Source: Bythopirellula sp. (GTDB taxonomy: Bacteria; Planctomycetota; Planctomycetia; Pirellulales; Lacipirellulaceae). Taken from it: a DNA stretch of 64,000 nt. The position numbers and the translations under genes are program-made. The notes below the pieces were generated by a model. That model saw only the letters and a list, made by a program, of their open reading frames with translations. It ran no database searches and was not told the DNA's origin. How positions within the stretch are numbered: the first letter of the stretch is position 1; the number at the start of each line of letters is the position of its first letter. This document shows positions 31,593-34,645 of the stretch, in pieces. Location: NCBI GenBank assembly GCA_965216565.1, contig OZ244170.1, positions 2,528,001 to 2,592,000 of the forward strand, in the 5' to 3' direction.

Positions 31593-32615
31593 TCAAACCG
31601 TAAAGCTCAGCACCATGAACGCCAAATAGAGCCCGAGCAGTACGAAGCCAAAGCCGCGTTTCATTTCATCTTTGGAGAGAAAGATTCCTGCGCGGAAGAC
31701 GATTAGGATCAACAACATACAAGGGAACAGAACACGAAAAAAGTTGTTCGTCGCGGGCAAGCCCGTCGGTGTCACGGCGGCCGAGGCACCAGCCACGAAA
31801 AGGACATTCAAGATATCGGCACCAATCACGTTGCCCACGGCTAGATCGCCGTGCTTTTTCAGCGCTGCAGTAACAGCGGTGACCAGTTCTGGCAGCGAGG
31901 TCCCGAAGGCCACCAGGGTTGCTGCGACAATACCGCTGGGGATCCCCATTCGCGTCGCCGCCACCTTAATCGCTGGTATCAACATATGACTCGCGCCTAC
32001 GACCAGAATAACGGCCAGCAGGAGCTTGACGACAACGATGGTCATCGAGGCGTCTTTGTCTTTCTCAAATTCATCCAACGCTGCCGAACCACCATTGGTC
32101 CCAGCCCAGCGAACTGATAGCCAAAGATAAACGGCTAGCAGCACGAGAAACACAAAGCCCATCATCTGTGGCAAATGGCCACCTACTTCAAACGGATTCA
32201 CTCCCGTCGCCCAAGGCCAGCATGCAGCCACCAACAAGAAGCCGGCCCCAAATTGCAACCAACCTTGTCGATTGACGATGTCGCGGGGCAACTTCAACGG
32301 ATTGATCAAACAAGCGATGCCCAATATGAGCCCAGTGTCGCAGATGATCGAACCCACCGCGTTTCCCAGGGCGACGTCGGGATCTCCCTTGAATGCAGCC
32401 AACACAGATACGGCTGCCTCGGGAGTGGTCGTGCCCAGGCTCACGATGGTGGCCCCGATAATTACCTTCGGCAAACCGGACCGCTCGGAGAGCACCACTG
32501 CCTCGCCCACCAGCCAGTCTGCCGCTTTGCCCAAAATCGCGAGGATAATGGCAATCTCCGCAGCCAGCGCCCAACTGAGTTGCTCCGTAAAGAACTCGAA
32601 TAGTTTTTCTTCCAT
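31593..32615 (-). CDS. Calcium/sodium antiporter (CaCA, YrbG-like)
   Basis: Alpha repeats GTTTPE / GTSLPE, GNAVGS / GNVIGADILN. Confidence 0.92.
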   Translation of the reverse strand: MEEKLFEFFTEQLSWALAAEIAIILAILGKAADWLVGEAVVLSERSGLPKVIIGATIVSLGTTTPEAAVSVLAAFKGDPDVALGNAVGSIICDTGLILGIACLINPLKLPRDIVNRQGWLQFGAGFLLVAACWPWATGVNPFEVGGHLPQMMGFVFLVLLAVYLWLSVRWAGTNGGSAALDEFEKDKDASMTIVVVKLLLAVILVVGASHMLIPAIKVAATRMGIPSGIVAATLVAFGTSLPELVTAVTAALKKHGDLAVGNVIGADILNVLFVAGASAAVTPTGLPATNNFFRVLFPCMLLILIVFRAGIFLSKDEMKRGFGFVLLGLYLAFMVLSFTV

Positions 32616-32779
32616 CGGTGAGGGGCAAAAGGTCGGGGGTGAAGGGGCGGGGGCAAACCTGACTGGGCGTTAGTAGTAAAGCTGACTGCCAAGAATGTCA
32701 ATGGGCGGCGGGGCTCGAGCAGCAGGGCAAGCGAATTACAAATTTGCCTAGAGACTACGGACTGAGGTCTACGGCCAAC

Positions 32780-32827
32780 AAAAAAAGGATCCGCTTGGCC
32801 TCTGCGGGAAAGCCAAACGGATCCTTT
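32780..32827 (-). terminator. Intrinsic terminator
   Basis: Minus strand AAAGGATCCGTTTGGC-loop-GCCAAGCGGATCC followed by T7. Confidence 0.85.
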
Positions 32828-32963
32828 GGGGTCGGTTTCAAAATCTGCGGGGGACGTTTTGAAACCTCACTACTGGGAACTCCGGCAACGCCTGAGCCGT
32901 CGTCTGGTCTTCCCGTGGCGGGTTGAGGTTGCCAGACGAGCAGCGTTTGCCGGTGGAATCGTT
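32780..32963 (-). ncRNA. Candidate ~184-nt three-hairpin sRNA
   Basis: Bounded by a sigma54 promoter and a terminator; three strong stems; CCCGC in each loop region. Confidence 0.6.
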
Positions 32964-32973
32964 AGATAGTTCA

Positions 32974-32989
32974 AGCAGTTCGCGTGCCA
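32974..32989 (-). promoter_or_regulatory. Sigma54 (-24/-12) promoter
   Basis: TGGCACG-CGAA-CTGCT vs consensus TGGCACG-N4-TTGCW; invariant GG and GC at the correct spacing. Confidence 0.7.
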
Positions 32990-33109
32990 AAATCGAAACG
33001 GATTCGGAGAGAATCGGATTCGACACTTCAACAACGCAGAATTACCCAACGGATTTCGTTTAGATTGCGTTTGCAACGAGAACGTGCGCTGTTGCCATAT
33101 TTGTAACTC

Positions 33110-33568
33110 TTACACGTCGGCTTGCTTCGAATCGAGATTTCGCAACACACTTGCTAGCATTGCCAGGAAGACGGGGCCCGTTTTCTGAAACTCGCGGTCC
33201 TCGGCCTGACAGAGCAGTAAGTAGGACGCTTCTGCAGTTCGAAAGCCACGCAACCAGCAGGTATTGGTGAAGTCGAGGCAGTAGAAGCTGACGTTGAAGC
33301 CTTCGATATCGGTCTGCTCCAACGTTTCCCGCATCGGCTCGGCTTCGATCTCATCGTAGAGCGATCTCAGCGTACTGAGAGCTTCGTCGAACAAGTCTTC
33401 CAGCTCAACCTCCTGTGGATGCTTGCTAAGCTGCCAGAAGGCCGTCTCTGGGCTGGAAACAATGACCTGTCCGGTGGAGGTCTTGCCGACCTCAGCAGAA
33501 TCTTCTTCCAGTTTCCAGTTTTCAGGATATTCAAACCGAATATCGAGTCGATCAAAAACGGCGGGCAT
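33110..33568 (-). CDS. Hypothetical protein (possible DcrB/PsbP-like fold)
   Basis: 152-aa ORF, FEYPENWKLEE N-terminus, acidic. Confidence 0.75.
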   Translation of the reverse strand: MPAVFDRLDIRFEYPENWKLEEDSAEVGKTSTGQVIVSSPETAFWQLSKHPQEVELEDLFDEALSTLRSLYDEIEAEPMRETLEQTDIEGFNVSFYCLDFTNTCWLRGFRTAEASYLLLCQAEDREFQKTGPVFLAMLASVLRNLDSKQADV

Positions 33569-33673
33569 GCTTCGATTACCTACGTATCAAGTATTGTTCT
33601 AGCTAGCACTATTTTATCAAACTCGGGCTGTACTGCCCATAGGTCAGCGCGATGCCGTTGCACCGGAGGAAAG

Positions 33674-34645
33674 GTGCTTGCTACTCTCCTGAGCCTATTC
33701 CGACCGTTCCTAGGTGACTTAGTGAAAAAGTGCTTTCTCAAACCTGATCAGCAACTACGTTCCGCAGTCGTTGTGCTGCTGCTAATCGCCGGGGTTGGTT
33801 GTGCCTCGATGCGCAAGCAAAAAGTGGTTCCGGAATCGATCACCGCTTGCCGAGAGATGTCGCGGCAAGGCGTGGCCGCAATGGAAGTTGGTCAATGGGA
33901 TCAGGCTCGCGAAATTCTGGAAAGCGCTGTTACTACGAGCCCCACCGACATCGACGCGCGACGTCACCTAGCTGAAGTGCTCTGGCAAACAGGCAACCAT
34001 CGCGATGCGGTGGTTCATATGGAGGCAGCGGTTCGGCTTGATCCGCGACACGCTCCAACGGTTGTGCGATCTGGCGAAATGTTGTTGGCCAGTGGTGCCA
34101 CCGACCGTGCGCTGCAGCGGGCCGAAGAATCGATCGTCCTCGATAGCCGACTAGCCGGCGCTTGGGCCCTGCGGGGAAGGATTTATCGTCAGCAAGGAGA
34201 ACCCTCTCGCGCCCTTGCCGATTTGCAACAAGCGTTGCGCTACAATCCCCATGCAACCGACGTGTTGCTGGCCATGGCGGAAATTCATTTTGAAATGGAC
34301 CATCCGCAACGCTGTTTGACCACCGTCCATCACTTACTCGACGTCTACGCACCAGGAGAGGAGCCCCAGCAAGCACTGTGGCTAGAGGGCTTGGCTTACC
34401 AGTCGCTAGACCGACCTCACGAAGCTGCCGAGAGTTTATACGCGGCCAGCTTGCGGGGGCCACCTCATGCTGAATTGCTCTATCGGTTGGCAGTGGCCGA
34501 ACAAGCCGCTGGTCGGACAGATTCGGCAGCTGATACTGTGGATCAGGCCCTGGCACTCGATTCGGGACATCAGCCAAGCTTGAACTTGCAGTCAAGTTTG
34601 AGGGTTGCCCGTGCAGGTCAATCCGATGGCGTTTTGCTGCGTTAG
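33674..34645 (+). CDS. TPR-repeat lipoprotein
   Basis: GGAGGA RBS plus GTG, lipobox-like AGVGC, multiple TPR helices (AWALRGRIY..ALADLQQAL). Confidence 0.85.
   Translation: MLATLLSLFRPFLGDLVKKCFLKPDQQLRSAVVVLLLIAGVGCASMRKQKVVPESITACREMSRQGVAAMEVGQWDQAREILESAVTTSPTDIDARRHLAEVLWQTGNHRDAVVHMEAAVRLDPRHAPTVVRSGEMLLASGATDRALQRAEESIVLDSRLAGAWALRGRIYRQQGEPSRALADLQQALRYNPHATDVLLAMAEIHFEMDHPQRCLTTVHHLLDVYAPGEEPQQALWLEGLAYQSLDRPHEAAESLYAASLRGPPHAELLYRLAVAEQAAGRTDSAADTVDQALALDSGHQPSLNLQSSLRVARAGQSDGVLLR

Follow-up and report, generated by a model that had tools for sequence, protein, structure and literature searches.

A probable sigma-54-dependent small RNA gene of a new family in Bythopirellula and other Pirellulales

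The stretch of DNA analysed here (the window) comprises 64,000 nt of contig OZ244170.1 of Bythopirellula sp. (assembly GCA_965216565.1, positions 2,528,001 to 2,592,000). On its minus strand a gap of 495 nt separates an open reading frame (ORF) of 152 aa (33568-33110) from a gene for a Na/Ca exchanger (32615-31593). An initial annotation, made from the sequence without database searches, had placed a small RNA (sRNA) gene with a sigma-54 promoter in this gap. Comparison with related genomes makes it very likely that a real sigma-54-dependent sRNA gene is located here and that it belongs to a new RNA family. Read along the minus strand, to which the coordinates of all RNA and promoter features refer, the gap contains a palindrome, a sigma-54-type element, a long hairpin (H1), a second hairpin (H2) and a terminator hairpin followed by U7.

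The sigma-54-type promoter was recognized by sequence match as TGGCACgcgaaCTGCT (32989-32974), with GG at -24/-25 and GC at -12/-13. This segment, TGGCACGCGAACTGCT, is the sole match to TGGCACN5YTGCW in the window (1 against 0.19 expected), and no sigma-70-like promoter was found in 32300-33600. The GC at 32976/32975 places the predicted start of transcription near A32963. With this start and the terminator defining its ends, the predicted transcript covers 32963-32780 (~184 nt), its 3' end lying in U7. H1 (32953-32882) has the basal stem CCGGCAAACGC/GCGUUGCCGG and is indicated by the fold and by compensatory changes in orthologues; the internal loop on its 3' side reads GGCUCAG in the window copy versus GACCCAG in the family. 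The apex of H1 is formed by a mini-hairpin of the type CCC-N5-GGG, CCCGCCACGGG (32922-32912), followed by AAG, which was seen in every family member inspected. H2 (32866-32834), of the form GGUUUCAAAA-cguccCCCGCAGA-UUUUGAAACC, shows the 8-mer CCCGCAGA (32851-32844). The intrinsic terminator (32827-32784, with U7 at 32786-32780) was identified by pattern and fold; it has 19 pairs and a 6-nt loop CCCGCA, and its loop region uuCCCGCAGAg includes a copy of CCCGCAGA at 32808-32801. The apical regions of the window RNA, CCCGCCAC, CCCGCAGA and CCCGCAGA, thus form three C-rich displays. The predicted 184-nt RNA folds with -76.9 kcal/mol, compared to -52.9±4.1 kcal/mol for dinucleotide shuffles (z -5.9; 0 of 200 equally stable), and is single-copy in its own genome. 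Promoter, H1, second hairpin and terminator with U7 were all found where the initial annotation had put them, and the 8-mer is indeed present in the loops of both H2 and the terminator of this copy. In the window as a whole the 8-mer is no more frequent than expected by chance (3 occurrences, 3.65 expected). No motif taken singly reaches significance inside the window, and the window alone does not prove the gene; the significance of the elements derives from their conservation, not from window statistics.

The predicted enhancer site, where a bacterial enhancer-binding protein (bEBP) would bind, is the palindrome TGTAAGAGTTACA (33114-33102), which starts 125 nt upstream of TGGCAC and overlaps the stop codon of the 152-aa ORF (33112-33110). 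The initial annotation had named other upstream activator elements, GTTAC-N7-GCAAC (33107-33091) and GTTGCAAACGCAAT (33077-33064). Both are present in the sequence, but neither is kept in any orthologue; the conserved site is instead TGTAA-N3-TTACA at 33114-33102.

Among 61 related genomes, BLASTN identified true relatives only in G017 and G035, both with the sigma-54 element and a nearly identical terminator. Matches with E values above 0.003 were left out, and a match in G002 (L011) covered 39 bases only. When 401 genomes of the order were scanned with the terminator pattern, 8 of them gave matches and controls gave none. In a species-level genome collection the pattern occurred at 14 loci, and nearly all of these, that of Adhaeretor mobilis HG15A2 among them, bear a Planctomycetota or Pirellulales label. 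The one locus attributed to a Granulosicoccus metagenome-assembled genome has a sequence identical to G017. All 16 distinct sequences from the scans carry the sigma-54 element TGGCAC-N5-xTGC, 208-393 nt before the terminator end, and all 16 loci contain the CCC-N5-GGG mini-hairpin. A TGTAA-N3-TTACA-type palindrome is located upstream of the promoter in 15 of the 16 loci, at a distance of 56-158 nt, mostly 102-158 nt.

Within the genus, the 152-aa gene was found in 26 of 27 genomes. At 25 of 27 genus loci the sigma-54 element and the RNA follow 3' of this gene (22 detected by regular expression and three as TGGTAY variants), the exceptions being G001 and G006; the palindrome consensus within the genus is TTGYAA-N3-TTRCAA. 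The resulting comparative set consists of 35 distinct orthologous transcripts of 185-370 nt. Six sequences were used to build a covariance model (R1), which finds the RNA in 39 of 41 sources searched, both misses being the two promoter-less loci, and matches the window copy at 32781-32959 with 28.9 bits (E 1.5e-5). The orthologue of Adhaeretor mobilis HG15A2 (NZ_CP036263, locus L051) is matched by R1 at G325:C1:4612160-4612391.

The family and the order referred to in the following are the Lacipirellulaceae and the Pirellulales, as given by the named record and the NCBI taxonomy. In the family, R1 gave matches in 78 of the 119 genomes other than the window genome; these are spread over 14 of 24 genera, and each has a single copy apart from G022 with two. 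This family-wide search used strict filters, under which the divergent copy of the window genome itself was missed. A second covariance model (R2), restricted to junction and terminator and built from eight sequences of several families of the order, matched 80 of the 151 genomes sampled from the order (at least one match in each of 56 genera out of 95, and of 24 families out of 30) and 0 of 150 genomes sampled elsewhere in the phylum. The E values of both models are rough, and the sampled genomes are related, so the counts are not independent. Among genomes without an R1 match, all five tested, from four genera, possess the 152-aa gene, with the next gene following without promoter or RNA in between, which indicates that the RNA gene was lost in those genera. 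Judged from these searches, the RNA family appears to be single-copy and, among the genomes sampled, restricted to Pirellulales. The comparison across this order proposed in the initial annotation yielded relatives in which promoter and stems are conserved.

The promoter logic was found to extend over the order as well. In an order-wide set of ten R1 loci, three from the Lacipirellulaceae and seven from other families, the sigma-54 element is present in all ten; the palindrome was detected by regular expression in seven, and the other three have TGCAA-N3-TTACA variants. A further 20 loci from 19 families showed the promoter in 19 cases, and a palindrome with at most two mismatches in 16, located 103-155 nt upstream and perfect in 10 of them. 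The sigma-54 promoter claimed for the window is therefore borne out in four sets of orthologous loci (16/16, 25/27, 10/10 and 19/20).

In a typical member of the RNA family, the 5' end is tied by a short helix to the segment that precedes the terminator. H1 has a covarying basal stem, the internal loop GACCCAG and the apical loop CCCGCA. It is followed by a three-way junction, in which the closing helix CUCGU/ACGAG surrounds the hairpins GCGUCG-nnGUAU-GACGC and CCCGUCACGGG. The 3' part consists of a variable linker and the terminator GGGUCCGGUUGGC-AUCCCUCGCAGG-GCCAACCGGGCCC-U(n). The CCC-N5-GGG mini-hairpin (helix 7 of the covariation alignment) stands in a separate three-way junction in most relatives and at the apex of H1 in the window copy; up to three similar mini-hairpins occur per RNA. 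CCCGCA stands at the apex of H1 in most members of the genus, and in other families the terminator loop shows CCCGCAGA, CCCCGCGAG or CCCUCGCAGG, so C-rich apical loops of the CCCGC type appear to be a family trait.

Covariation was analyzed in an alignment of 25 sequences with E values below 1e-9, fitted to R1. In this model-fitted alignment 92.6% of cells were paired compared to 81.2% in shuffles. Changes on both sides were found in 42 of 60 pairs, against 19.0±2.6 in shuffles (a value reached by 0 of 500) and 12-18 in slid controls, and each of the nine helices has at least one compensatory pair. In H1 (helices 2-4) 16 of 17 pairs changed on both sides. The terminator (helix 8) is conserved across the order and shows covariation and frequent G-U pairs in its stem, which point to selection at the RNA level. 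Consensus folds based on MAFFT alignments missed H1 because of length variation, while the model-based alignment recovered this hairpin.

These data bear on the question whether the region is an RNA gene at all. Two ORFs, of 62 aa (32838-33026) and 68 aa (32870-33076), overlap it, and the single motifs lack significance within the window, so that chance hairpins, a small protein gene or palindromes acting at the DNA level might be considered. However, both ORFs begin upstream of the promoter and belong to no Pfam family; orthologues differ by insertions and deletions and share no common ORF, which disposes of the coding-type conservation of the 62-aa ORF that the initial annotation had wanted checked. 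The longest ORF inside the window transcript has 16 codons, no ORF is common to the 35 transcripts, and two orthologues lack any ORF. Together with helices that covary and use G-U pairs, this makes a locus without an RNA gene scarcely credible.

The window copy is an outlier in its own family. The three-way-junction domain, the most conserved domain of the family, is absent from it. A hairpin at the position of H2 is visible only in G017, G020 and G019 among the aligned relatives, with differing loops, and the duplication of CCCGCAGA is consequently lineage-specific. Compared with the typical members, the window RNA is best described as a reduced variant that has lost the junction, carries CCC-N5-GGG atop H1 and displays CCCGCAGA in two further loops.

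Searches with the covariance models of Rfam 15 gave no match in the window at gathering thresholds and none in the region 32600-33250 at E values up to 10. Seven typical relatives, searched at E<=1, yielded just five matches at chance level (18.9-28 bits, against gathering thresholds of 40-100). The initial impression that no known family is involved therefore holds for the window as well as for typical members, 6S RNA included. The possibility that this is a divergent RNA of the 6S type, or one that acts as a decoy of the sigma-54 holoenzyme, nevertheless deserves mention: the length is similar to that of 6S RNA, no match to the 6S model (RF00013) was found anywhere in the window's own genome, so that its 6S RNA is unaccounted for, and GGCAC(G), resembling a -24 box, is frequent in the 5' strand of H1. 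The GGCAC positions, however, covary as base pairs, and the fold consists of tandem hairpins or a multibranched structure without the rod and central bubble. No 6S match was obtained in the window region (E<=10) or in the seven typical members (E<=1), and a presence in just 80 of the 151 genomes sampled within the order, and in none of the 150 outside it, is unlike that of a housekeeping RNA. Very little credence is therefore given to this explanation. Just 3' of the RNA terminator in one relative (G397, L044 1410-1488) a near-perfect inverted repeat of 79 nt was observed, both strands of which matched a microRNA precursor model at chance level.

The genes surrounding the RNA vary. In the conserved gene order a divergent TPR gene comes first, followed in some cases by the 152-aa gene, then by the RNA, a short-chain dehydrogenase (SDR) gene and a pyruvate kinase gene. 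The divergent TPR gene is the conserved upstream neighbour across many genera, and several loci have no co-oriented upstream gene. At five loci (L049, L050, L052, L054 and L055) the SDR gene directly downstream is convergent with the RNA. The Na/Ca exchanger gene is an insertion in some lineages only. The initial annotation offered an alternative, in which the RNA would be a leader or attenuator acting in cis on the exchanger gene (31593-32615, minus strand). What speaks for it is the co-oriented Na_Ca_ex gene that comes next downstream in the window, in G017 and in Adhaeretor mobilis. This reading does not hold, since five related loci have a convergent gene next to the RNA. Moreover, the RNA closes with a 19-bp terminator and U7, 165 nt before the ATG of the exchanger gene, and it was detected in roughly half of the Pirellulales genomes sampled, while the exchanger gene is downstream in only 2 of 15 related loci examined. 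A leader is thus very improbable, and the conserved promoter, enhancer site and terminator, together with the convergent genes, argue for the stand-alone RNA that had been proposed at first.

In the window, the hypothetical 152-aa gene (33110-33568, minus strand) is located directly upstream of the RNA and is not part of it. Its product belongs to no Pfam family; in a protein atlas its clusters are restricted to Planctomycetota, and it has a feature-level likeness to DcrB/Alr1449-type proteins. The TPR-repeat gene (33419-34645, plus strand) points away from the RNA locus. As its longest ORF and the 152-aa gene share 150 nt, the true start of the TPR gene is probably located further downstream.

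The genome of this Bythopirellula encodes one rpoN (a PF04552 match) and shows 16 strong bEBP matches (PF00158). Among 165 strict sigma-54-like sites in this genome, an exact palindrome at the right distance was found only at the RNA gene. A relaxed scan of the same genome gave five sigma-54-like sites with a palindrome-like element, of which two are inside genes. A promoter with such an element (at 2,639,822; G000:C1:2639699-2641218, L195 3700-5222) reads TGGCACacgaaTCGC and precedes a small membrane ORF and a BON-domain gene. This promoter is kept in 17 of 20 genus loci but its palindrome-like element is not, which suggests that it serves a separate sigma-54 operon in a different regulon. 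Across 120 genomes of the family, the exact promoter-palindrome pattern gave six matches in five genomes, compared to four control matches.

No bEBP gene was found within 3 kb of the RNA loci. The nearest one, 40 kb off at 2.601 Mb, was rejected as a candidate as it belongs to a flagellar cluster. This cluster (G000:C1:2594000-2606000, L194) includes genes for FlgN, a rod protein and FliF, and a histidine kinase/receiver-bEBP pair of the FlrBC/FleSR-like type. When two RNA-positive and two RNA-negative genomes were compared, one of the bEBPs of the window genome had reciprocal best hits in the positive genomes only. This protein of 347 aa (L193 5474-6517, minus strand; G000:C1:3277000-3289000, ~3.283 Mb) has an AAA+ domain and HTH_8 and lacks a receiver. 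Its neighbours code for a stand-alone receiver, three PEP-CTERM proteins, Wzz/GNVR chain-length and tyrosine-kinase-like proteins and an ECF sigma factor. The receiver-less bEBP is a candidate for the activator but a weak lead only, since it stands in a PEP-CTERM/exopolysaccharide locus and the sample of genomes was tiny.

Sequence comparison shows the gene as such, the logic of its promoter, the RNA structure and the lack of ties to neighbouring genes. On balance the locus is best explained as a stand-alone gene for a structured non-coding regulatory RNA, a reading that, taken together with the modes of activation and action set out below, is held with moderate confidence. An enhancer-binding protein would bind TGTAA-N3-TTACA about 125 bp upstream and switch on sigma-54 RNA polymerase at TGGCAC-N5-CTGC. 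The transcript would begin near 32963 and halt at the U7 terminator near 32780. The RNA would then act in trans, its exposed C-rich loops of the CCCGC type, including that of the terminator, pairing independently of Hfq with G-rich segments of mRNAs. Such Hfq-independent pairing through C-rich loops is judged the likeliest mode of action, though it falls somewhat short of being probable. It agrees with the occurrence of CCCGC in 24 of the 35 transcripts (17.4±2.9 in shuffles), with the scarcity of its complement GCGGG (2 of 35, against 14.3±2.7), with the unpaired state of 18 of 30 CCCGC occurrences in minimum free energy folds, and with the finding that no Hfq or ProQ domain was detected in the genome.

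Several points weigh against this interpretation. The motif statistics of the transcript set are based on related sequences, by which their significance is overstated, and the covariation alignment, being fitted to a model, favours structure. The transcript ends and the dependence on rpoN are predictions: a search of sequencing runs for the locus gave four runs of one study that are not recorded as RNA, while four possible RNA runs contained none of its sampled words. In a crude target scan, made without gene annotation, the complement of the loops was not enriched near ORF starts: TCTGCGGG was located there at 4 of 179 sites, compared to 10 of 156 in the control, and NTGCGGG at 162 of 3052, compared to 143 of 2691. 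An anti-Shine-Dalgarno role was considered and rejected, since CCUCC occurs in 12 of the 35 transcripts and in 10.2±2.6 after shuffling, which is no enrichment. The terminator loop of the family may be largely self-paired (CCU/AGG). Finally, a junction with invariant unpaired bases throughout the order and a terminator stem conserved in sequence would be more characteristic of RNAs that bind a protein or ligand than of sRNAs of the seed type.

The last point leads to an explanation that accepts the same gene and the same sigma-54 control. The RNA might be a ribonucleoprotein or a decoy that sequesters or scaffolds a protein, or a sensor of a ligand, with the three-way junction, the CCC-N5-GGG mini-hairpins and the sequence-conserved terminator as binding parts, as in GlmY, CrcZ and Y-like RNAs. 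This is judged possible, but rather unlikely. Unpaired bases of junction and loops are kept across families (UCUUAG, GUAU, CCCnnCACGGG and CAGUUUUU), the sequence of the terminator stem is conserved order-wide, the size varies between 185 and 370 nt through inserted domains, and each RNA has up to three similar mini-hairpins. The negative outcome of the crude scan for pairing targets, and a genome with 12 CsrA paralogues in which Hfq and ProQ were not found, would also fit. On the other hand, the window copy is junction-less yet has promoter, enhancer site and terminator intact, and no linked candidate for a partner gene was found among the 83 ORFs around 15 loci. The CsrA motif GGA is rarer than chance (103 against 125.5±7.6 in shuffles) and is not conserved in the junction loop. 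Because of this depletion of GGA, a sponge for CsrA of the CsrB/RsmY/RsmZ type is unlikely despite the 12 CsrA paralogues.

If the RNA does bind a protein or ligand, it could represent a new class of structured, sigma-54-gated ribonucleoprotein regulators rather than a simple antisense sRNA, a suggestion that is made tentatively. The junction, the three mini-hairpins and the terminator would then be a module for a protein or small molecule specific to Pirellulales, which is likewise doubtful at present. In that case the RNA would be the single dedicated output of one activator recognizing TGTAA-N3-TTACA, and the junction-less window copy a natural minimal variant that reveals the essential parts. 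It was also observed that the genome combines 12 CsrA-domain paralogues with the lack of any detected Hfq or ProQ domain and of an Rfam 6S match; the post-transcriptional machinery of this organism looks unusual.

The analysis of this probable regulatory RNA gene supplies an RNA family with covariation support and two covariance models, suitable for submission to Rfam, together with its promoter logic, a precise predicted activator site, and a range that takes in roughly half of the Pirellulales genomes sampled and, outside this order, no genome out of the 150 sampled from the phylum. Cultured strains, Adhaeretor mobilis for example, allow several questions to be tested: which of the ~16 bEBPs is the activator, which signal is perceived, and how an sRNA acts without Hfq. 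Natural variants for dissection are at hand in the junction-less window copy, the forms of 185-370 nt with inserts, and the genera that have the neighbouring genes but not the RNA gene. A full-text literature search found no paper on sigma-54-dependent or other regulatory sRNAs in Planctomycetes.

Several Hfq-independent sRNAs with C-rich loops are known, namely RNAIII of Staphylococcus aureus (H7/H13/H14) and RsaE/RoxS. Like these, the RNA described here has several C-rich apical loops, including the terminator loop, in an organism in which Hfq was not detected. It differs in its motif, which is CCCGC(A) and not UCCC or CCCC, is not clearly of the anti-Shine-Dalgarno type and found no support from targets, and in its control by sigma-54. 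Pxr of Myxococcus xanthus is a sigma-54-dependent sRNA too. With Pxr (PMC5568312) the RNA shares tandem stem-loops, a single copy or few copies and restriction to a lineage. Homology is lacking, and the family described here is larger, has a conserved three-way junction and is not located beside an activator gene.

GlmY and GlmZ of Enterobacteria are controlled by the two-component-type activator GlrR and sigma-54, and GlmY is a protein decoy (PMC3045617; PMC7073468). They are sigma-54-driven sRNAs like the RNA family of the Pirellulales, and the decoy role of GlmY corresponds to the protein-binding explanation discussed above. The present RNA differs in having no match in sequence or structure, in being single-copy without a homologous partner, and in lacking a context of the RapZ or glmS type. 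The Qrr1-5 sRNA genes of Vibrio are driven by LuxO and sigma-54 (PMC10162802). Compared with the Qrr RNAs, the RNA of the Pirellulales has no Rfam match, a length of 185-370 nt instead of ~100 nt and a different fold, and it occurs in a different phylum. Its palindrome has half-sites two bases wider apart than those bound by LuxO, and no Hfq domain was found in its own genome. The LuxO site is reportedly TTGCA-W3-TGCAA, which the half-site TTGYA found here resembles. Both systems consist of a stand-alone sRNA gene with a sigma-54 promoter and a single conserved palindromic activator site ~100-150 bp upstream, and in both one activator appears to have the sRNA as its dedicated output.

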